Source: a virus
Length of the DNA: 64,000 nt
Reading direction: 5' to 3' (one strand)
IMG/VR virus record: IMGVR_UViG_3300050821_001592
Span: 20,703 to 84,702 of that record
Part shown: positions 2,664 through 53,513 of the stretch, piece after piece
Layout of the letters: the number at the start of each line of letters is the position of its first letter
Position numbering within the stretch: the first letter of the stretch is position 1
Program-made: the position numbers and the translations under genes
Notes under the pieces: generated by a model
Seen by the model: only the letters and a program-made list of their open reading frames with translations
Databases searched by the model: none
Told to the model about the DNA's origin: nothing

Positions 2664-2738
2664 TGGCTGGCGCGGCAGGACTCGAACCTGCAACCACGCG
2701 GTTAACAGTCAGTCGGATTGCCGCTATCCTACCCCACA
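2664..2738 (-). pseudogene. Chimeric tRNA-Asn(GTT) with non-matching 5' and 3' halves
   Basis: D-arm GGAT/ATCC, anticodon loop CTGTTAA, T-arm GCAGG-TTCGAGT-CCTGC, G-CCA end. Anticodon stem (ACTGA vs CCGCG) and acceptor stem (TGTGGGG vs CGCGCCA) do not pair properly. Confidence 0.8.
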
Positions 2739-7709: not shown

Positions 7710-8162
7710 CTAGTCCCAGAAACTCAACGTATTTAGGTCCGCAATTCTCTGGTGTATGCGTTGGCCTGTCACGGGATTCGTAGCGGCGATGAGCTGCTTG
7801 AACCACGGTCTTTCGATTTTATTTAGAGCGCCGAAGTATAGTGCGCCCGTTTTATTCTCGCTGTGTGCCCCTCGGGTCATGTCAGAAACGGAACCATCGA
7901 ATATCCCGTCGACTGCGGAGAGGAGTTTGATGAATGTCGGTTCCCAGATTGATGGGTGACTGAGCGGGGGGATTTCATTCTCGGCCATACTTTCAGGAAT
8001 CGTGTCGAGAACACGGAGCCACGACCCCCACCCCAAGCGAACTCGATTAGCGAGGGTGTGCATTACCATTTGTCCCGCGAGATGACCGCCGCCGTATGAT
8101 TGGCCAAATCTCCAACCATACTCTACGAGTTTTCCCTTCACATAATTGTCTTGAGTTAACAT
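7710..8162 (-). CDS. SleB/Hydrolase_2-like cell wall hydrolase homolog, catalytic Glu apparently absent
   Basis: GQMVMHTLANRV..GW...DMTRGA...GALYF follows the SleB pattern; AGGAGG RBS. Confidence 0.55.
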   Translation of the reverse strand: MLTQDNYVKGKLVEYGWRFGQSYGGGHLAGQMVMHTLANRVRLGWGSWLRVLDTIPESMAENEIPPLSHPSIWEPTFIKLLSAVDGIFDGSVSDMTRGAHSENKTGALYFGALNKIERPWFKQLIAATNPVTGQRIHQRIADLNTLSFWD

Positions 8163-8369: not shown

Positions 8370-8804
8370 TTATTTCTTCGTCTTGGGTTCTGTCAACTTT
8401 CCTTTTTCCCGTTCGAGTTCTTCGTGAGTCGGGTAGTGGGGTTGGAACCTCGTAGGAGTCTCTGCATCCTCTTCAGGAGTCGCGTCGGCAGATTCTCCGA
8501 GATGGTTCAACGCAACGTAGTTCTCGCGAGTCATGGGGATTTTATATTTCCGCATGATATCCCCGATGGGGTCAAACGGTATGTTTTTATCCAGCACTCG
8601 TCTTGGTTTAATGTTTGCGGGGTTGCCCAGCGCAGCCCTGTCAACTTCCATATCGGGTGTCTGTAATGGGGCCTTGTCGACATTCATCTTCGCCGCAACG
8701 GGGGTAACCGTTTCAGGTGGGTCCGTATCAAGATGCGGTGCGGGGGTGGGCGGATTCGTCTGCTGAAGAATCCTACCCCCGAAATCTACGGGTGCGCCTG
8801 CCAT
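8370..8804 (-). CDS. Hypothetical protein
   Basis: GGAG RBS, ATG 8804, own promoter. Confidence 0.6.
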   Translation of the reverse strand: MAGAPVDFGGRILQQTNPPTPAPHLDTDPPETVTPVAAKMNVDKAPLQTPDMEVDRAALGNPANIKPRRVLDKNIPFDPIGDIMRKYKIPMTRENYVALNHLGESADATPEEDAETPTRFQPHYPTHEELEREKGKLTEPKTKK

Positions 8805-8820
8805 ATTTGTCTCCATTAAT

Positions 8821-8849
8821 ACTGTACCACAAGGCTCAATCGAAGTCAA
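8821..8849 (-). promoter_or_regulatory. Sigma70-type promoter
   Basis: TTGACT-17 nt-TACAGT. Confidence 0.55.
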
Positions 8850-8852
8850 GCT

Positions 8853-11800
8853 CTATTTTTGAGAGGCATTCCACTGACTATCGGTCGTCCAGACGGGTCG
8901 TTTAAATCCGCCCGCTTTCTCGATAATCTGTTTTCGAGCTTCGTCTTTAGTAATCTTGCCTTCGCTCGCTTGTCGCCAGATATCCGCAGCGTCCTTACGG
9001 ATGCTACCTTTTTTGCCCTCACGACTAAACAAGGACCTTATGCCTTCCCAAGTTATGGATTGCATCTCTCTCGGAGAAACGCCGACTTCCTTTGCCGCCT
9101 GCTTATAGGCTTCATCATAGACCGGGTATGAACCACCCAGCCCCGTGCCCGCATGTTTGCCCGCGCCGGGTACACCCGGTGTAGACCCGCCGAAGTTGTG
9201 AGCCACCTCCGTATCTTTCTGGGAGAATGGTTTCCAATGAGCTGCGCCTACGGCGTGCGTATCAATAGTGACGTGCCCCCTGTCGGACCACGGGTTAATG
9301 ATGTTGTTATAGAAGTTCCTAATCTTGTGCCCGTTGCCCATCAAACGATTGATGTTCTCGATTGAACCGTCGTCTAGGAGGTTAACGGCCTTTGCGACAG
9401 CGTCGTATGGGCCCCAAGCAATCTTCTGCGACCCTCGGATTGTTCCGTCGGGGGCATACACTGGAATCTCGGGTGAGCCGTACGCTTGGTCAGCCATGCG
9501 AAGCCAAAGACCGCGCATTACGCTCGTTTCAGCGGGGGTGTCGCCCTGAAGCTCATCATAGGACTTACCACGCACGCTATCAAGGAACCCTCGGAATTCC
9601 GGCTTAGTCGACTTGGCATTACGGATGGCTGAAAGTTTCTCGTCCATCTTTTCATCCCAGATACGACCTCTGTCGTTCTTCCAACGCTCCATCAATCGTT
9701 GCGCCATGCCAACATTATTATCCCAAGGGTTGTTGGGTGACAGCGCAGCGATGACCGCAGCGGCTTGCTCGTGAGCTAGACCATAGTCATTAGCAAACCC
9801 CTTGCTCAAATCGTGTGCCGATTCATACCACTGTTTCGAGATACCGCGTATCGATTCGGGAATAGCGTTGTATAACGCTACGAGATTATCTTTGTAGTGG
9901 GCTACTGCTTTTTTGATAATTGAATTCGCGTGCTCAGCAGGCGTTTCCAATTCTTCGGGGGTGAGTTTTAGACCCGTATCTTTGTAGTTCGCCACCGCTT
10001 GAGCTATGGTCGCCTTCAACTTCGGAGGCGCATCGTTCAATGTTTTCATGCCGGAAGTACGGTCAGGGTTGTTAGTCGTGTCCGCGTTCACGGTTTGCGG
10101 ATTAGACGTCGCAATCTCTTTACTCTTCAAGGCGTCTGTATACTCGGGCGAGACCTTAGTTACGGGTCTCGCTTCCGGCAATGCCGCCGTCTTAAGTTCT
10201 TGAGCACGCTTAGCGATATCTGAGAAGGATGCGGTGTCTCCAAGCTCTGTTCTTGCTTGTTGAAAGAATGCCGTATCCCGAGCTGCGCCTTCGGGAGTAC
10301 CGACGGTTTGCGTCTTTGCCTGAGGCGGTTGAGGCATGTTTGGGTCACGGTTCATTGTTGCCCGAGCGCCCTCTGTTTGGTCAAATGGATTACTAATGGG
10401 TCGACGATTCTTGATAGCGTCTTCCAATTCAGCAGCAGACATCGTGGAACGCGACCCCGCCCGTCGTTCTTCGCCTGTATAAGATTCAGGTACGGCTAGT
10501 GAGTACTGTCCATTCTCTTCCCTTACAGCGTTTGGGAACTCCCGCTGTAGGGCCTGCCACACGCCTGCGGCTTTTGTCGTATTAGACACGTCCGACTCAA
10601 TCGTCTTGACACCCGCCTTCTGAGCTTCCTGAATGAGTTGTTTGTACGCACCAATACCGTAGCCTTTGCCTGTCTCTCCATTCTTAACAACTGCGTCTTT
10701 AACCGTCCATGTACCCGGAATCTGTTCCTCAACCTTGATATGACCGATAGGCTCGTCCCCCCGCATGATTTCCAAGCGGTCGGGCTTACCCTCGGCATCT
10801 GTGACCATGTCGTGGGTGACGGTCGGTTCTGGTTTCGCAACCTCGTCCAACAGAGATGAGGTCTGGGGTTGTGCCTGCGCCTTCACTTCAGCGGCGGCTT
10901 TACCCTGAGCTTGGTTCATAAGGTCTTCGAACTCGCGACCCGCCCCGCCTTCACCAAAAGGTTCACCTACTGTGCCGGGAGGGCCTAGCTCTCCGTGTTC
11001 ACGAGTAACAGCGTCTTTGAGATTAGTAGCCAACTTAGAAAACCATTGCCCCCAAGCTGGATTGAACATGATACGGTCCATCAAAAACTTGGATGCGATG
11101 GTACCTGTCATGCCGAAAGGTACCAAATGGGACGCCGCGACTTCCAGCGCGTATATACCCCAAGCCTTAATACCTTTAGGTGCGCCTTTAATAGGGTCGA
11201 ATAGCTTAGTGACGTTCTGCCAGTTGTCGTATCCTTCCTCACCTAATAGACGTTTGAAAGCTCCGGGGCCTTGCCCGCGACGAATCATCTTGTTATCGAT
11301 GTTAGCTTCGAGTCCGCGTAGAGTGTTTCCGGTTATCGTACCCTTCGCGGTTGCGCCGCGCAGGCCATTAGCTATCTCTTGAAAACGTTGAGAGTCTGCA
11401 TATAATTTCTTTGCCGAATCATACTCAGCGGGGGAGATGACATCGCTATGTTGTTTGAACCAGCTATCAATCGCCTTCTCGGCCTTCGGAATACCTGTTT
11501 TATATGCGTCCTCGCGAATAGCTGCGTCTTGGCTATTACTGTCCGCTTTAGCACGGTCCAATTCAGCCTTCAACTCGCTATACGACTGAGGCTTCTCGGG
11601 AATCGATACGGCGTTAGGGTCGTATACCGCATGGGGCATGGGCTCTTCGCCTTCAGAGAGGTTGGCGTTGTATGCGTCAATATTAGCGTTGTGACGGTCC
11701 AGCAGGTCCTTATGGTCATTCAACGCTTCCTTCACCGTGTGTTGCCACGCCGCGATATCCGCATCGGACGCAACATCAGCTTTTTTATATGTTTTTTGCG

Positions 11801-46758: not shown

Positions 46759-46819
46759 TTGTTATTTGTAAAAAAGCGGGGCTGTGCCAGCAGTCTCGCT
46801 TATTTTTTCTTGGAGGGGT

Positions 46820-48883
46820 ATGCCCGACTCAAAGTTGGTTGAGGAGATTCTCGCTTCAGCACAAGATGCGCTGGCTCGGGGGTTTGCAATTCTTACATGC
46901 GAACCTCACGACAAATCTCCATGGGCGTTATACAGCCCACACGCGGTCAATAGTTCCACCCGAAACCCTGAAGTCGCATTAAAGCCGTGGGTAGTCGACA
47001 AAGTAGAGGCTAACTATGGCGTGGGGTGCGGGCCATCCAACATCACCGTGGTTGACGTAGACCACGGCGTGAATTCTATTGAAGACTTTGAAAAGTGGCG
47101 CACGGACCACGGTTTCCCCGAGACTTTTACTGTCATCTCGGGTCGAGACGGTTTCGGGGCGCACTTGTACTATTCCGGTGCTGTCGCAACGACGGGTTTT
47201 GATATTGGTGGAGTGACTGGAGAGTTGAAAGGTCACGGCGGGTATGTCGTAGGGCCCGGTTCGGTCCATCCCTCAGGCAAAAAATACTCCATCTACAAAG
47301 ACATCGCTATCGTCCCTCTGCCCGACGGTGTGAGGTCCCTCGCAAAGGAAAAGAAATCTGCGAACTACACGCCTGTGAAGGATGGCGGCAAACTCATTGC
47401 AGCCGGAAATCGATGGCTTCATCTTCAATCCGCATCGGGAAAATTCCGTAATGCAGGCCTCGACGAAGAAGGTATTTACGCAGCCCTGAAGAACTTCGCT
47501 ATCAACAATTGCGAGGACGGAGACAATTATCCTGATGAAAAAATTAGAGAGATTGCCAATGCAGCATTCAATAAGTTCGAGGCCACTGAAGCTGCGCCTA
47601 TTGTGTTCTTCGGCGGCAGCTCCAAGATTGACGTCAACATTACCGAACTGCCACAAACTGCTGTCGACGGAGATTGGATTGGAGAACTATCCCACTGTGT
47701 CGCTGACGGAACTTTTATCCCCCTCTCCTTTGCCAGAGCGCAAATCAAGACAATTCTTGCTGCCTCATTGGATGGTAAGGTAGGATTCCCCGGACAACCT
47801 GACCTCCACATGAAACACTGGAGTATGCTCGTGTCCTCCCACCCAGAATCTGGGAAGGGGGAATCTTGGAAACGTGTAGGCGAACAAGCTCTCGCTAACT
47901 ATATTTCAAAAACCAACATCGGATTGCCAAAATCTGGATGGTTCTCATCCGGCGAGCACATGGTAAAGAAACTCTGCGATGAGCAGTTCGAAAACAAAAA
48001 CTGTCTTGTATATTTCGATGAGTTGAAAATACTCTTCGAAAAAGGCGGGTCGAGCAACTCCACGTTATTCTCGAAAATGATTGAACTGTATGACCGGAAA
48101 GACTCTAGCGCGGGTTCCCTCTCGCACGAAGGTGGGGAGTTCAACAACATCTCTCTGTCCTTCACGGGGGGCTTCACCCGGTCGTCTTACGAGTCCGCAT
48201 TATCCGGCAAGGGCGCGGGCGGTGATGGGTTCTTATCTCGTTGCGTTCTGACATACACCGGAGATGTCACCCACACGGGGGATTGGTCTGAACTGAACCC
48301 CCTCGCGGTAAATGACCTCGCAAACAAGATGCTTCTGCGGTGGCAGATGATTAGCAACAGCATGGGGCTTAATGAAGGGAAACCTTTACAGATATCCGAG
48401 ACGTCGGAAGCCTATGACCTCCGTATGAAGTTTCAGAAAAGCTTAGCAATCCAACGAGCCCGTTTGAATGAAGAGATGCCCGGTATGGGTATGACCTCTC
48501 GTCTGGAGAGTCATTTCAAACGCGACCTCCTACTCCGTGCTATATTCTCGGGAGACCCTGAAGTCACGCCCCTCATTACCGCTGACATGGTTGAGCGGTC
48601 TGTTATTTGGGCAGAACACGAACTTTACCTTCGCGAGGAACTATGGCCTATCGATAAGGGCAACCTTGTCGAGCGCATGGAACAAAGCATGAGAAAGGCT
48701 CTGAAAAAACACGAGGCCTTAACTAAAAGCCAGCTTATGACCGCGTGTAATGTTTTCAGGGCGGGGTCTGGGGGCATGGAAACTTTCGACCGGGCTTTTA
48801 AAGCTATGCTTCGTGGAGCGTTAGTGGTTATCGGCAAAACTTCTAAAGGGACCGAGAAGTTCGGGTTAGACGAGTCCCTCTAA
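46820..48883 (+). CDS. Bifunctional primase-polymerase fused to PriCT and P-loop (DUF3987-like) helicase domain
   Basis: VVDVD, GAHLYY, GGYVVGPGSVHPSG; GNR..L...G.FR PriCT; PESGKG and VYFDEL. Confidence 0.85.
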   Translation: MPDSKLVEEILASAQDALARGFAILTCEPHDKSPWALYSPHAVNSSTRNPEVALKPWVVDKVEANYGVGCGPSNITVVDVDHGVNSIEDFEKWRTDHGFPETFTVISGRDGFGAHLYYSGAVATTGFDIGGVTGELKGHGGYVVGPGSVHPSGKKYSIYKDIAIVPLPDGVRSLAKEKKSANYTPVKDGGKLIAAGNRWLHLQSASGKFRNAGLDEEGIYAALKNFAINNCEDGDNYPDEKIREIANAAFNKFEATEAAPIVFFGGSSKIDVNITELPQTAVDGDWIGELSHCVADGTFIPLSFARAQIKTILAASLDGKVGFPGQPDLHMKHWSMLVSSHPESGKGESWKRVGEQALANYISKTNIGLPKSGWFSSGEHMVKKLCDEQFENKNCLVYFDELKILFEKGGSSNSTLFSKMIELYDRKDSSAGSLSHEGGEFNNISLSFTGGFTRSSYESALSGKGAGGDGFLSRCVLTYTGDVTHTGDWSELNPLAVNDLANKMLLRWQMISNSMGLNEGKPLQISETSEAYDLRMKFQKSLAIQRARLNEEMPGMGMTSRLESHFKRDLLLRAIFSGDPEVTPLITADMVERSVIWAEHELYLREELWPIDKGNLVERMEQSMRKALKKHEALTKSQLMTACNVFRAGSGGMETFDRAFKAMLRGALVVIGKTSKGTEKFGLDESL

Positions 48884-49129
48884 TCACTGTCAAACGGTTG
48901 ACAGTGATGAATACTGTATAAGTCCTTTAGAATGAAGGGCCGACTACAATCACTGTCAAAACACCCTATATATATATACGTGAGGATGAGTTTTTTTTTC
49001 CTAATATAGGGGTATATATATACAATACTTTTGACAGTGATTGACGGGAAACTGTTGATAGTAAATAAGATACGCCGCAAAAACTACTCGACAGTGATTG
49101 ACAGTGATTGACCGTGATTGACAGTGATT
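48882..49129. repeat. Iteron-like GACAGTGATT repeats around an AT-rich core; probable replication origin
   Basis: Inverted copies at 48882 and 48948, direct copies at 48900 and 49033, four tandem at 49090-49129; TATA/poly-T core. Confidence 0.7.
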
Positions 49130-49142
49130 GGAGGAGGTAACT

Positions 49143-51167
49143 GTGGTAACATCGCAAAGAAGACTGTGGATGGATTATGAATCCCGGTCCCATATTGACA
49201 TCAAGAATTACGGTCTGGATAACTACGCGAAGCATCTGACAACCGAGCCGTTGATGATGGCGTATGCTTTCGATGAGTCCGAACCTAAGCTCTGGAAAAT
49301 TTGGATGGGGGAGGAGATGCCCGAAGACCTTAAAGAGGGTCTGCTTAACCCTGAGGTCATGCTCGGCGCATGGAATTTTAACTTTGAAAAAGATATAACC
49401 GAATATAAAATCGGGATTCAAACGCCCCTGTCCCGATGGTTCGACCCGTCCGTCTTGTGTGCGTACATGTCCCTCCCTATAGGTTTGGACCGGGCATCTA
49501 AGGCCCTCGGACTCAAAGAGAAGAAGATTCACCAGACGGGCCCGAAACGCGGTATCGCTTTGTTTTCAAAACCCAGCAAGACGAAGAAGACGTCCCTGAA
49601 GAAAGACCCAACTCTCCCGCCGACGTATTTCAAAGATTGGAACAGCCACCCCGAGGATTGGGAGATTTGGTGCCAGTACTGTTTGCAGGATGTCCGAGCT
49701 GAGCGAGAGGCATGGCATAGGGCCGTAGAATATAACTGCCCGATGACAGATGAAGAGTTCCGTGCGTGGCAGCTCGACCAACGGATGAACGAGACGGGCC
49801 CCTATATCGACGAGCAATACGTCACCAACGCTAAGGCTCTTGCTGAAGCTGAAGCTGAGGAAATCCTATCGGAGATTAAAGCCAACACAGGCTTGGAGAA
49901 CCCAAACAGTCGCGACCAGATGCTTGAATGGTTGACCGACCGTGGATATCCATTCACATCCCTCGATAAAGAGCATATCGAAGAGGCCCTGAAACACAAA
50001 ACTCTGAAACCTCTCGTCCGTCAAATGTTAGAACTAAAACAGAAGCTCGGCGGTAGTGCGTACAAAAAACTCGAAGCAATTCTGGACCGCATGGGGGTCG
50101 ATAAACGGCTGCGCGACCAGTTTATCTATCACGGGGCCCACACCGGACGTTGGGCGGGTCGTGGAGTACAGCTCCAGAATCTATTCAAGCCCGACCGTAA
50201 TGTCCTCGCGTACTCATGGGAGAAAGACACCACAAAGCGGTTGGATATCTACACGCGGGCTATCCGAACGGGTAAAAAGATTTACTCCCCGTTCACCCCT
50301 ATGAACCTCGTCGCAAGTACAATCCGGTCGGCGTTTGTCGCCACACCGGGGCACAAACTAGACGTCGGCGATTTAGCACAAATCGAAAGCCGGGTTCTGT
50401 GCGTTCTCGCCCGTTGCGTATCGATGTCTGAGGCATACGCGGCAGGACGGGACCTCTATAAAGAGTGTATGGCGAAGCAGCTCGGGATTGATATATCTCA
50501 GGTCACGAAGGCCCATCGCGACCGGGGCAAGGTCCAAGTTCTCGGCTGTGGTTACGGGATGGGTTGGGAGAAGTTCATCGCGTATGCCGCAACTTACGGA
50601 CTCATACTCACAGAGAAAGACGCTAAGGAAAGTGTCTACGGTTTTCGCGAAGCCTATCCTGAAATACCGGATTTGTGGAAAGAGTTCAACACGGCTGTTA
50701 TCCGAGCTGTGAAATCAAACATCTGCGTCTACGTGAAGGGATGTGTCGTTGACGGAAGAGACGCTCGCGTTCTGAAAATTAAGCTCCCTTCCGGTCGGGC
50801 ACTTCACTACTTCAGTCCGTACGTCAACATCAGTATGAAGTTCGGGCGTCCGCTGGAACAGGTGTCTTACACTCAGTATGACGCCAAGGGTTCGAAGCTT
50901 TCGGATTTGTACGGCGGGCTTATCGTCGAGAATGTCGTGCAAGCTATAGCTAGGGACATCCTATTGAACGGCATGTTCGAAGCGGAGAAAGCGGGCTTTA
51001 CGATAATCATGACTATTCACGACGAAATCGTAGCAGAATCTTTAATAGATTCAAAATTAAACCTTGACACCCTGCTAGATTGTATGGTCAAATGTCCTCA
51101 GTGGGCCGAGGGTATGGGCTTTACGCTCAAGGCTGAAGGGTATGAAGGACTGTATTACAAGAAATGA
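49143..51167 (+). CDS. DNA polymerase family A with 3'-5' exonuclease
   Basis: DYESRS exo I, HTGRW, DLAQIESR (motif A), RGK..LG.GYGMG (B), IHDEIV (C); GGAGG RBS before GTG 49143. Confidence 0.93.
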   Translation: MVTSQRRLWMDYESRSHIDIKNYGLDNYAKHLTTEPLMMAYAFDESEPKLWKIWMGEEMPEDLKEGLLNPEVMLGAWNFNFEKDITEYKIGIQTPLSRWFDPSVLCAYMSLPIGLDRASKALGLKEKKIHQTGPKRGIALFSKPSKTKKTSLKKDPTLPPTYFKDWNSHPEDWEIWCQYCLQDVRAEREAWHRAVEYNCPMTDEEFRAWQLDQRMNETGPYIDEQYVTNAKALAEAEAEEILSEIKANTGLENPNSRDQMLEWLTDRGYPFTSLDKEHIEEALKHKTLKPLVRQMLELKQKLGGSAYKKLEAILDRMGVDKRLRDQFIYHGAHTGRWAGRGVQLQNLFKPDRNVLAYSWEKDTTKRLDIYTRAIRTGKKIYSPFTPMNLVASTIRSAFVATPGHKLDVGDLAQIESRVLCVLARCVSMSEAYAAGRDLYKECMAKQLGIDISQVTKAHRDRGKVQVLGCGYGMGWEKFIAYAATYGLILTEKDAKESVYGFREAYPEIPDLWKEFNTAVIRAVKSNICVYVKGCVVDGRDARVLKIKLPSGRALHYFSPYVNISMKFGRPLEQVSYTQYDAKGSKLSDLYGGLIVENVVQAIARDILLNGMFEAEKAGFTIIMTIHDEIVAESLIDSKLNLDTLLDCMVKCPQWAEGMGFTLKAEGYEGLYYKK

Positions 51168-51173
51168 GGGATT

Positions 51174-51359
51174 ATGAAAGTCAATGTCGTTGAGACTTGG
51201 AGGCATACGTACTCTGTCAGGCTCGGACAGTTCCGATTGGATTTTGAAGGGACGAAAGCTCGCGCCGATGAAATCGCGGCCTATCTCAAGCGGTCTATCA
51301 ACCGTTCGGGCACGAAAAAGAAAAGCTTGACAGCCGCGTCGAGGTTTGATACTCTCTAA
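51174..51359 (+). CDS. Small hypothetical protein
   Basis: GAGG RBS, follows the polymerase. Confidence 0.5.
   Translation: MKVNVVETWRHTYSVRLGQFRLDFEGTKARADEIAAYLKRSINRSGTKKKSLTAASRFDTL
51327..51355 (+). promoter_or_regulatory. Sigma70 promoter of the ncRNA array
   Basis: TTGACA-17 nt-TACTCT; predicted +1 falls at the first stem (about 51362). Confidence 0.7.
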
Positions 51360-51623
51360 ATAGGGGGAACCAATCCCGAAACGAATGAGCGAGGCTAACC
51401 TTGGGACCTCGCCCTTGAATCGGTGGAAAACCCCTCTAATTCTAGAAACAGGCGTGGATGGGAGATTCGGGTCATCCTAGGATTGACACGTTGAAGCCTG
51501 TACCCGTCGAGTCCAGTCCACACAACGACGGGAATTTTAAGTTTGGGTAGCGCAGGACTTCCGTTGCGGTCTTCCGGGTGACCGGAAACACACTTGCCGG
51601 GAGTCCAGAGCGGACCCAATTAT

Positions 51624-51777
51624 GGGCATACGCTGTTAGGGAAAGCGGGCCTTAAACCCGCCACAGCATTGCATGGAGACGTTGTCTAAAAGAAAACAGG
51701 TAAAGACTGAGGTAACTCTGCTAGTAGCCTGTTAGTAATCCATGCAGAACGACGGTTCGATTCCGTAGGTGCCCACC
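51624..51777 (+). ncRNA. tRNA-like RNA (acceptor stem + T-arm, enlarged internal arms)
   Basis: GGGCAT pairs GTGCCC-ACC; ACGG-TTCGATT-CCGT; arms GCTGT/ACAGC and TGCATGGA/TCCATGCA. Confidence 0.6.
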
Positions 51778-51858
51778 GAATCTAAGTTTGCGGCAAGTCG
51801 TGGATTACCTGCTACGCCTATCGAGGGCGTCGTAATGCAGGAGAGCCGCAAAAATTAT

Positions 51859-52230
51859 TACGGTATGAAGGCGTGGTTTCCATTGCCAGACGCGGGTTCG
51901 ACTCCCGCCGCCTCCACCCGACAACACGAAGCGGACTTAGAGCGCAAAACCTTTTGGGGCAGCGATGACGGCTCGCCATTAGGGAGTAGGCTCGAACGGC
52001 TCCGACCTAGACAGTCAACTAGCGTATGCTTCGTGTTGCCCGGTGGGGGCGTCACGGAATCGATGGGGATGATGAAGGCACGCTGGACTGTACGAGGTTA
52101 CATGGCCCTCGTTAATCAGACACGTAAATCACAAATGCCACGCCAAAACGTGCGTTTGCTGCCGCTGCTGGACGCTAACCCGTCCTGCACGACTGAGTTC
52201 GCGGGGCACTTGGAAACAGAAGCCCCGCAA
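51859..52230 (+). ncRNA. ssrA: Circularly permuted (two-piece) tmRNA
   Basis: 3' end GACGCGGGTTCGACTCCCGCCGCCTCCACC (to 51918) precedes 5' end GGGGGCGTCACGGAATCGATGGGG (52045); G3:U70 pair, helix 2, pk1 and tag frame 52137-52178 all present. Outer ends are approximate. Confidence 0.88.
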
Positions 52231-52432
52231 AAATTGACCTAATCCTGATTCCCAGAGGCGGAACATGCTAGCCACCGTTTGTTGGGATAAAGGAAGCAGT
52301 GAGGGGGCACAGGGCTCGCAAAGCGAGACCTGACTAAACGCTGGGCAGAAATGCCGAAGCCCCCGAATTTGACGTTGCTGTCTGACCATCCGAGCCTTGG
52401 GCTACAGACAGGCGCTTAATTGAAACACGGCT

Positions 52433-52702
52433 GTGCGCGACCGCGAGGTCATACAGGCGAACCAGATTCTAGGAGGGCTCGTGGATAAGACAACACAAAT
52501 ATTCGTAGTAGAGGCGGGGCAAGAGTTTGAAATTCAGGTCATGGGCTCTGAGGCTTCGGTAGCCGACCCGACAGGTATCATCAACGGAATCACGTACCGC
52601 TATCGAGCCGACTCTAGCGGGCTTACTCAACTCGGACAAGCCTACCGCTCCGTACCAAGTCGAATCGAAGGTCGTTGGATGCTCGAAAGGAAACCCCTCT
52701 AA
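52433..52702 (+). CDS. Hypothetical protein (start uncertain)
   Basis: TAATG coupling to the next gene; GGAGG at 52471 suggests GTG 52481. Confidence 0.5.
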   Translation: MRDREVIQANQILGGLVDKTTQIFVVEAGQEFEIQVMGSEASVADPTGIINGITYRYRADSSGLTQLGQAYRSVPSRIEGRWMLERKPL

Positions 52703-53295
52703 TGGAAATCTTCATTACGAGCGATGAGCACTACGGACATCGAAACATCATTACGTATTGTAAACGTCCGTTTGCAAACACAGATGCGATGCGAGATTAT
52801 ATCATCGCTCAGCACAACAAGAAGGTTCCGCGCTCGCCGAACTACCTTACGATTCATGCGGGCGATATGTTCTGGAATACCCTGACTCAAAAAGAGGCGG
52901 CTGAAATCCTCTATCAGTTGAATGGCAAGCATGCCTTCCTGTATGGGAATCATGACGAGTTAATCGAGAACAACCCTTGGATACGCTCTGAATTTATGTG
53001 GGTCAAGGGCGAGAATAAGGTCGGCGGCGCAACCATAGTTAATTTTAACAACAAGAAACTCCTCGTCAGCCATTTCGCACATCGTGTGTGGGAGAGAAGC
53101 CATAAAGGGAGCTACCATGTTTACGGACATTCGCATCAGGAATTACCGCCGTTGGGTCAATCTTTTGATATCGGAGTTGAGGGACACGATTACAGCCCTT
53201 GGTCGCTGGAAGAGATTTTTTCAAGAATGGAGACGCTTAAACCGCACCATGTAATTCCGAAGGACCAGATATGGGATGGCAAGTCTACCGAATAG
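52702..53295 (+). CDS. Calcineurin-like metallophosphoesterase
   Basis: TSDEHYGH, HAGD, GNHD, SHF, YGHSH, FDIGVE. Confidence 0.9.
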   Translation: MEIFITSDEHYGHRNIITYCKRPFANTDAMRDYIIAQHNKKVPRSPNYLTIHAGDMFWNTLTQKEAAEILYQLNGKHAFLYGNHDELIENNPWIRSEFMWVKGENKVGGATIVNFNNKKLLVSHFAHRVWERSHKGSYHVYGHSHQELPPLGQSFDIGVEGHDYSPWSLEEIFSRMETLKPHHVIPKDQIWDGKSTE

Positions 53296-53513
53296 TCAAC
53301 GAAGAGGGGCTCAAGATGCTCGGCCCCTTTAAGACGCCGCACATGGCGAAGCTGAGGGCCGAACAAAATGCGAAGTATCTGAAATCCCTCGGGTATGACC
53401 TAGTGTGGTACAAAGTGGAGGAAATAATTGGCGATTATGACTCAAACCCACTCAACCCACTTAACTCGGTTATATTTCCAACAGTGGGTCGGGACGGCTG
53501 GCAAACATTTTGA
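53271..53513 (+). CDS. Hypothetical protein
   Basis: AAGGA RBS, overlaps the upstream stop. Confidence 0.5.
   Translation: MGWQVYRIVNEEGLKMLGPFKTPHMAKLRAEQNAKYLKSLGYDLVWYKVEEIIGDYDSNPLNPLNSVIFPTVGRDGWQTF

Follow-up and report, generated by a model that had tools for sequence, protein, structure and literature searches.

A soil phage ssrA locus in which a two-piece tmRNA gene is accompanied by a conserved tRNA-shaped RNA

The DNA analysed here, which we call the window, is a stretch of 64 kb from an 84,702-base IMG/VR virus record (IMGVR_UViG_3300050821_001592; estimated completeness 89%), and it contains a 1.1-kb non-coding RNA locus placed within the replication module of a phage. Along the plus strand the locus comprises a sigma-70-type promoter (51327-51355), a leader (51362-51623), a tRNA-shaped RNA of 154 nucleotides (nt; 51624-51777), a circularly permuted, or two-piece, transfer-messenger RNA (tmRNA) gene spanning about 51787-52255, and a trailer (52256-52470) that may instead be the 5' untranslated region (UTR) of the next gene. 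A first-pass annotation had described the same region as a promoter-driven array of about ten structured RNA modules. The non-coding locus behind a conserved promoter was borne out by our analysis, with RNAs of a type that tRNA-processing enzymes excise, while the number of modules was an over-count that does not amount to ten independent small RNAs. Four or five of the listed modules are domains of one permuted tmRNA gene, as indicated by ARAGORN, by the Rfam family RF04321 and by the alignment of relatives.

The segment 51787-52255 is a phage ssrA (tmRNA) gene of the known, two-piece kind. RF04321 matched 51859-52172 at 70.5 bits against a cut-off of 47, covering model positions 1-213 of 213, and ARAGORN called a permuted tmRNA at 51824-52269 with the tag ATPKRAFAAAAGR. 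The acceptor (3') piece precedes the coding (5') piece with a 126-nt insert between them, which is the order of a permuted gene. The acceptor-piece core (51859-51918, from the RF04321 alignment) is 72-97% identical to eight relatives and includes the 3' strands of helix 2, the T-arm (51892-51908) and the acceptor 3' strand CGCCUCC (51909-51915). The discriminator A and CC follow at 51916-51918, the terminal A not being encoded. The coding piece (52045-52255) begins with the 5' acceptor strand GGGGGCG (52045-52051), continues through the tag frame and carries a terminal hairpin at 52201-52228. The alanine identity pair G3:U70, read from the RF04321 alignment and the sequence, is present as G52047 with U51913. 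The tag frame (52137-52178) starts on an alanine codon and encodes ATPKRAFAAAAGR followed by a stop codon located in a hairpin loop; the ending of this tag, Gly-Arg after AAAA, is unusual.

Between the two pieces lies the intervening segment (51919-52044), the unaligned insert of the RF04321 match, in which an 11-bp stem joins 51922-51932 to 52028-52038. This segment would be removed as the two pieces mature, since such removal is described for permuted tmRNA genes in PMC11915505. At the end of the coding piece, the hairpin 52201-52228 has an equivalent at the same place in L032 (8861-8901; 90% identity) and counterparts in L002 and L023, and this conserved position makes it the 3' domain of that piece. 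Its loop (52209-52219) may pair with 52245-52255 as a candidate pseudoknot (9 of 11 positions, by eye), and the loops of the L002 and L023 terminal hairpins can likewise, by eye, pair with downstream sequence. At the other end of the gene, a hairpin closed by 8 bp (51787-51852; z-scores of -3.6 and -3.4) is interpreted as a 5' extension belonging to the acceptor piece, and the ARAGORN start at 51824 falls within it.

Related loci were collected by searches of viral contigs based on the family-A DNA polymerase (PolA), which gave 16 and then 28 loci. ARAGORN reported a permuted tmRNA in 2 of 16 (L002 and L003), in 5 of 25 (L021, L023, L025, L030 and L032) and in 4 of 7 metagenome loci (L068, L071, L072 and L064, the last being the L002 contig again), so that ten other loci carry the gene. 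At the seven tmRNA loci found through PolA, the tmRNA lies just downstream of a PolA gene whose product is 40-61% identical to that of the window; in L022 and L024, where PolA is 54-55% identical, the contig ends there. The tmRNA is located between the PolA and metallophosphoesterase genes in eight loci (the same seven and L068), PolA adjoins it in L071, and L072 has a different context. The interval between PolA and the phosphoesterase is highly variable and holds, besides the tmRNA, small membrane-protein genes, a 292-aa open reading frame (ORF), a 144-aa ORF and other structured blocks. Just four parts of the window are matched by relatives, namely the tRNA-like RNA, the acceptor core, the coding piece and the terminal hairpin. 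Tags end in AAGR at six of ten distinct loci (the window, L003, L021, L023, L030 and L068), and the other endings are AAAA (L002), AAGL (L025), SAGA (L032) and AAHA (L072). The Gly-Arg codons are GGA CGC in the window versus GGT CGG in the other AAGR tags, and these synonymous pairs suggest selection on the tag peptide.

Several relatives showed additional structure within or near the tmRNA gene. A block directly upstream of the acceptor core was seen at L003 8988-9160, L068 5323-5495 (minus strand), L002 8558-8619 and L021 at about 8023-8075. The L003 and L068 blocks are 86% identical over 175 nt and have a pseudoknot-like core, AAGGCU..CGACC..AGCCUU..GGUCG with variants, that is also found in L002 and L021; the block is probably a pseudoknot domain of the acceptor piece, outside the coverage of the Rfam model. 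In L002 a 144-aa ORF (8630-9064) separates the block from the acceptor core. It has a LAGLIDADG-like motif by eye, Pfam returned nothing for it, and it may be a homing-endonuclease insertion in the tmRNA gene. L002 (9095-9206) and L003 (9549-9684) also share a closed RNA module of about 112-136 nt with the outer stem AGTCGC...GCGACT, in which compensatory changes between the L002 and L003 copies affect 7 of the 30 predicted pairs. Since it forms the tmRNA intervening segment in L002 and stands downstream of the tmRNA in L003, the module looks portable. The corresponding model (R2) detected it neither in the window nor in 15 other loci, and Rfam in E-value mode on L002, L003 and the window locus gave tmRNA and tRNA only, with no group I intron.

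The second conserved element, 51624-51777, was first exposed by the alignment of the window with L002 and L003, and its description rests on the fold, alifold, the models R1 and R3, and covariation. The covariance model R1 found copies in L021 and L030 and, after a pattern scan of metagenomes, in L068, L054, L049/L071 and twice in L072. An exact-pattern scan of viral contigs returned just the two contigs already known. A 20-mer pattern hit 37 metagenome and 17 genome stretches, mostly by chance. With R1, seven metagenome loci were confirmed but not one of the 17 stretches from bacterial genomes, a result that is not proof that bacteria lack this RNA. The family alignment holds ten copies from nine loci and, having been fitted to the model, is biased towards the structure; in it 86.8% of cells were paired and 26 of 40 pairs had changed on both sides. 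None of 500 shuffles reached the observed covariation score, and sliding the partners by 1-3 columns reduced pairing to 29-45%. We conclude that 51624-51777 represents a real, conserved and uncatalogued RNA family. The prediction of uncharacterised RNAs at this locus, and the covariation check proposed along with it, thus succeeded for the tRNA-like RNA.

The RNA has an acceptor stem of 6 bp plus a conserved A.G, the T-arm GGTTCGATTCC, a D-like stem of 5 covarying bp whose loop keeps GG, a variable region of 4-5 nt and the 3' end ACC. In its acceptor stem, T-arm (GGTTCGAnTCC), D-loop GG, variable region and ACC it resembles canonical tRNAs. It differs from them in bearing an extra hairpin in the D-loop and in having no 7-nt anticodon loop, the place of the anticodon arm being taken by a 9-bp stem with a branched tip that ends in a three-way junction. 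Position 3:70 is G-C in the window, and G3:U70 occurs in two of nine complete copies (L068 and L049). YrlA RNAs are permuted and end in a Ro-binding stem, whereas the tRNA-shaped RNA ends in its acceptor stem. The YrlA and bacterial Y RNAs (RF02553; PMC4201824) are similar in being non-coding RNAs with a tRNA-like module that also occur in phages, but no such family was among the Rfam matches of the window at E up to 10.

Two identities were considered for 51624-51777 and rejected. A canonical tRNA (RF00005) did not fit the branched arm, and neither ARAGORN nor, at E up to 10, RF00005 reported one. A tmRNA reduced to its tRNA-like domain (TLD) and lacking a coding sequence, as in the TLD-only tmRNA of mycobacteriophage DS6A (PMC4131195, PMC11915505), would share with the window RNA a tRNA-like top half without a tag frame, in a phage (PMC4131195). 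The window RNA differs from the DS6A type in its closed, covarying D-like stem and two extra branched arms, in G3-C70 where G3:U70 would be expected, in giving no RF00023 match at E up to 10 and in having a complete tmRNA alongside. No other Rfam family recognised the segment at that threshold. Our literature search, which was not exhaustive and did not extend to supplements, brought up no published account of a tRNA-shaped RNA associated with the tmRNA genes of phages.

A tmRNA was present on the same locus in 8 of 8 places where the tRNA-shaped RNA had enough flanking sequence, and the tRNA-shaped RNA lies upstream of it in five (the window, L002, L003, L068 and L071). Our best guess is a tRNA mimic that does not decode and is linked to the tmRNA system; proteins that handle tRNA or tmRNA could be its partners in processing or binding. 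A more far-reaching proposal would make the 154-nt RNA a partner or antagonist in a phage takeover of ribosome rescue, engaging SmpB, EF-Tu, RNase P or a host defence that targets tRNAs; the Gly-Arg-extended tag of the co-expressed tmRNA would no longer mark proteins for ClpXP, and at least the hairpins 51543-51619 and 52303-52364 would add further stable small RNAs to this programme. We regard this combined proposal as unlikely. For a molecule similar to TLD-only tmRNA, strong inhibition of tmRNA is reported, with titration of SmpB as a possible cause (PMC4131195, citing Mao et al. 2009). L072 comes from a contig of 332,300 bases, a size that suggests a very large phage. At L072 5748-6280, some 3.9 kb beyond the permuted tmRNA in the downstream direction, a tRNA-Gln(UUG) stands between two copies of the tRNA-shaped RNA; the RNA sits there in a row of tRNAs, as in phage tRNA clusters. 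By analogy only, the tRNA cluster of phage T4 co-transcribes two stable small RNAs of unknown function, species 1 and 2, which are cut from a polycistronic precursor.

The promoter was present as originally claimed, with a -35 hexamer TTGACA (51327-51332), a 17-nt spacer and a -10 hexamer TACTCT (51350-51355) readable in the sequence. The -35 is perfect, but a generic promoter scan does not report the promoter, since its -10 matches only 3 of 6 bases. The pattern TTGACA-N17-TAnTnT followed by (G/C)TAA(A/G)TAG(A/G)GGG recurs at the same place in L002, L003, L068 and L049, so that promoter and transcript start are kept in five loci including the window, and we take the promoter as real because of this conservation at an equivalent place. 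No plus-strand terminator was predicted inside the region.

The leader and trailer are lineage-specific. The leader hairpins (51363-51435, 51448-51501, 51503-51532 and 51543-51619) have z-scores of -2.2, -3.2, -2.4 and -3.9, the last reaching -5.2 in a matched control, and those of the trailer (52250-52287, 52303-52364 and 52378-52411) have z-scores of -1.6, -5.0 and -1.8, with -3.5 for the middle one in the matched control. Except for 51543-51619 and 52303-52364, these hairpins were indistinguishable from background. Leader conservation is confined to the first ~12 nt. A blastn search with 51360-51613, 51780-51854 and 52232-52470 gave no hits in seven viral relatives and five metagenome loci, and none of the four leader and three trailer hairpins has a homologue in the 10 other tmRNA-bearing loci, so that the covariation test cannot be passed for them. 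Neither part has a Rfam family at E up to 10 or a second copy elsewhere in the genome, and for these hairpins the expectation of uncharacterised RNAs found no support. In the relatives the ribosome-binding site of the next gene follows the tmRNA by ~10-25 nt, which makes the ~215-nt trailer of the window an insertion of its own lineage. The hairpin 51543-51619, the most stable one in the leader, begins with GGGTAGCG (51543-51560) and ends with GCGGAC; L021 (~7920-7975) and L030 (~7915-7960) share GGATGGGTAGCG...GGAC..AGGCTTTGGC upstream of their tmRNAs, a short likeness that may be chance.

Where the window has its leader and trailer, relatives hold protein genes or nothing, and this bears on two other views of these segments. 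One is that the leader and trailer derive from small genes, still present at these positions in relatives, that have decayed here into neutral sequence with incidental hairpins. Relatives do have ORFs of 70-290 aa between the promoter, the tRNA-like RNA, the tmRNA and the phosphoesterase gene, and stem counts in the region are at background level. A tblastn search with the relatives' ORFs of at least 35 aa, however, gave no credible hit in 51360-51620 or 52250-52470, and two of the hairpins are far more stable than shuffles. This view, which we rate as improbable, overlaps with the explanation we favour, since in both the leader and trailer are without a shown function. The other view holds that the leader is a cis-regulatory element, riboswitch- or attenuator-like, controlling the expression or processing of the tRNA-like RNA and tmRNA. 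It would fit the position of the leader directly between promoter and first RNA gene, and by eye the transcript 5' end AGRGGG of the window, L002, L003 and L068 can pair with a C-rich stretch farther along; such control has been proposed for the glutamine riboswitch in the ssrA of phage Melnitz (PMC9004378). Given that the leader is unconserved past its first ~12 nt, that at E up to 10 Rfam gives neither a riboswitch nor a leader family for it, and that a small protein gene occupies the place in L003, L021, L030 and L068, we consider cis-regulation by the leader very unlikely indeed.

The claim of an array was based on consecutive closed structures, and all the stems and motifs listed for it were found in the sequence. 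Perfect closing stems were confirmed at 51448-51501 (6 bp), 51503-51532 (7), 51543-51619 (6), 51787-51852 (8), 52201-52228 (7), 52303-52364 (6) and 52378-52411 (7). The listed items that are tmRNA domains are the 51787-51852 hairpin, both tmRNA pieces, the intervening hairpin and the GCGGGGC hairpin ending in CCGCAAAAATT; in the terms of the first-pass annotation, the tmRNA gene covers 'TTTGCGGC...GCCGCAAA', the 'tmRNA pieces', one CCGCAAAAATT-ending module and part of 'TCCCA...TGGGA'. The 11-nt repeat CCGCAAAAATT does end two modules (51846-51856 and 52225-52235), at a frequency expected by chance (E 0.5-1 in the 84.7-kb genome). Its copies follow the hairpin ahead of the acceptor core and the terminal hairpin of the coding piece, and either could pair with TTTGCGG at 51787-51793. 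The statement that no ordinary tRNA is present also stood: ARAGORN calls the tmRNA alone in the window and in the whole record, and at gathering score Rfam reports only RF04321 in the 64 kb and no tRNA. The proposed Rfam scan (Rfam 15, 51100-52700, E up to 10) gave six matches, of which four are of tmRNA type and the other two, at E 8.1 and 9.3, lie far below cut-off. It therefore supported the tmRNA, named no family for the other modules, and showed no ribozyme, riboswitch, group I intron or Y RNA.

The frequency of closing stems in 51360-52470 (1.11 kb) was compared with 407 equal-sized windows of the same genome. Perfect stems of at least 6 bp numbered 23 against 19.5 +/- 4.4 (23% of windows reach 23) and those of at least 7 bp numbered 7 against 4.9 +/- 2.2 (19% reach 7). 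Closing stems of 6-7 bp are thus at background frequency for this genome, and only those of at least 8 bp are enriched (4 against 1.3 +/- 1.4; 2.7% of windows reach 4). Sliding 100-nt windows did not separate the region from its coding flanks (mean z -0.58 versus -0.35; Mann-Whitney p 0.19). The fold z-scores of the individual modules, in order, were -2.2, -3.2, -2.4, -3.9, -3.6, -3.6, -1.6, -5.0 and -1.8, for segments picked after the fact. As a control, all genomic segments bounded by a perfect stem of at least 6 bp were scored against shuffles; five with z <= -3 fell in the 1.11-kb region versus 1.27 per kb elsewhere in the genome. Three of the five belong to the tRNA-like RNA or tmRNA, and the other two are 51543-51619 and 52303-52364.

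These data bear directly on the view that the transcript is processed into about ten separate and mostly new small RNAs, for example putative decoys for RNA-binding defence proteins or translation modulators. The region is indeed free of ORFs, lies behind a promoter and is found in RNA-library contigs; its closed segments with z <= -3 occur at ~3.5 times the density seen elsewhere in the genome, two of its hairpins are unusually stable, and tRNA and tmRNA fragments that serve the phage anti-defence protein AcrIIIA1 offer a precedent (PMC11662646). Five of the items, however, belong to one tmRNA gene and seven hairpins are without a homologue in 10 related tmRNA loci. With closing stems of 6-7 bp at the background rate of the genome, and neither a Rfam family nor a copy elsewhere, an array of ten RNAs appears highly improbable.

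We favour instead, with a probability of roughly 0.7, the explanation that the region is a phage ssrA locus with a tRNA-shaped companion RNA. The promoter would drive a long non-coding transcript that extends into the genes downstream and carries two functional RNAs, the 154-nt tRNA-shaped RNA and the permuted tmRNA, the latter in the order 5' extension hairpin, acceptor core, excised intervening hairpin and coding piece with terminal hairpin. Host RNase P, 3'-end trimming enzymes and the CCA-adding enzyme would act at 51624, 51777, 51918 and 52045, and this cleavage would release the tRNA-like RNA and the two tmRNA pieces. The paired pieces, together with host SmpB, may then rescue stalled ribosomes in the infected cell. 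The leader (262 nt) and the trailer would be a lineage-specific 5' stabilising stem plus spacer or UTR hairpins.

Contigs from RNA libraries provided additional data on the locus. Nineteen runs matched, and three soil metatranscriptome libraries (X1, X3 and X4; three coded studies, perhaps one campaign) and one DNA run were compared with it. With 0-1 differences, X1 contigs cover 51116-51343, 51304-51776 and 51889-52399, those of X3 cover 51284-51565 and 51536-51779, and one of X4 covers 51461-51627. The lack of RNA-library contigs on 50300-51107 and 52724-53300 was not counted as evidence. The contig ends at 51776 and 51779, beside the predicted 3' end at 51777, were not usable as a hint of processing, the DNA run likewise having no contig across the site. 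One X3 contig has a loose end at 51918, where a shared 30-nt acceptor end runs directly into a different tmRNA 5' end (GGGGGCGTCACGG...) with no intervening segment; it derives either from another organism or phage or from a joined form.

A number of observations weigh against the explanation of an ssrA locus with a companion RNA. The assembled (Logan) contigs show presence and not RNA ends, strand or level. The contig 51304-51776 bridges leader and tRNA-like RNA, and 51889-52399 bridges acceptor piece, intervening segment and trailer, so that what the libraries show is unprocessed precursor or carried-over DNA. The tRNA-shaped RNA is absent from L023, L025 and L032 (3 of 11 tmRNA loci) with filters off or with R3, and it lies downstream of the tmRNA in three loci (L021, L030 and L072); these absences and the varying order indicate that the two RNAs are linked but not obligatory partners. 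The hairpin 51787-51852 was assigned to the acceptor piece by its position; it has no sequence in common with the pseudoknot block found there in relatives. The hairpins 51543-51619 and 52303-52364 fold far better than their shuffles and could be functional. Finally, the closest PolA from a cultured phage is 34.6% identical to that of the window, so that no host can be named.

Phage tmRNAs, two-piece forms included, are documented (PMC9004378, PMC4131195). In the data reported in PMC9004378, tmRNA occurred in 402 of 18,146 phage genomes as 133 unique forms, of which 53 were two-piece by ARAGORN, and 50 of those 53 came from marine or aquatic phages. Permuted tmRNA transcripts are cleaved by tRNA-processing enzymes (PMC11915505). 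The locus studied here resembles the ssrA of the OM43 phage Melnitz and of pelagimyophages in its permuted form, its lytic-type phage genome and its position directly behind a promoter (PMC9004378), and no SmpB gene was found in the record of the window. It differs in coming from soil libraries as opposed to marine or aquatic sources and, compared with Melnitz, in having no glutamine riboswitch match. The group to which the window belongs is further set apart by the Gly-Arg tags in 6 of 10 loci and the linked tRNA-shaped RNA. The two-piece tmRNA is therefore of a known kind, here in soil phages, and the tRNA-shaped companion RNA is new.

In a clade of soil and peat phages, a two-piece tmRNA is thus kept along with another conserved RNA, which is tRNA-shaped and constitutes a candidate new RNA family for which a covariance model and ten aligned copies are at hand. 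Phage-borne tmRNAs have been known without their purpose being known, and this two-RNA system, with tags mostly ending in Gly-Arg versus the usual Ala-Ala, may be used for testing how phages manipulate ribosome rescue. The locus also calls for caution, in that a tidy run of hairpins in an ORF-free stretch turned out to be mostly the domains of one known RNA and unconserved spacer.

The protein genes around the locus are those of the replication module. Upstream are a primase-polymerase gene (46784-48883), the PolA gene (49128-51167) and a small 61-aa ORF (51174-51359), whose last codons overlap the promoter. Downstream, a 73-aa gene (52481-52702, plus strand) starts with GTG at 52481 behind AGGAGG and is followed by the conserved metallophosphoesterase gene (52675-53295). 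The GTG at 52481 is the first gene start with a ribosome-binding site, there being no credible plus-strand ORF from 51360 to ~52470; the only plus-strand frame of at least 40 aa in 51360-52432 is one of 157 aa (51769-52242) that overlaps the tmRNA, and small ORFs with ribosome-binding sites were limited to candidates of 12-22 aa, none conserved. For the 52481 gene of the window and six neighbouring ORFs of relatives, the sole Pfam hit was RNase_Y_N at 19.4 bits, below cut-off. A blastn search of 51150-52650 against 50,697 phage records gave no matches. When the tmRNA DNA was used as a query against 301 Alphaproteobacteria, 11 gave matches, each spanning just 25-33 nt. Elsewhere in the window, between two minus-strand ORFs, a tRNA-like element at 2667-2738 (minus strand) scored 27.7 bits with RF00005, below the cut-off of 29, and was not called by ARAGORN. 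Its acceptor and anticodon stems are mismatched, its T-arm is good, and model R3 touches it at 22 bits.

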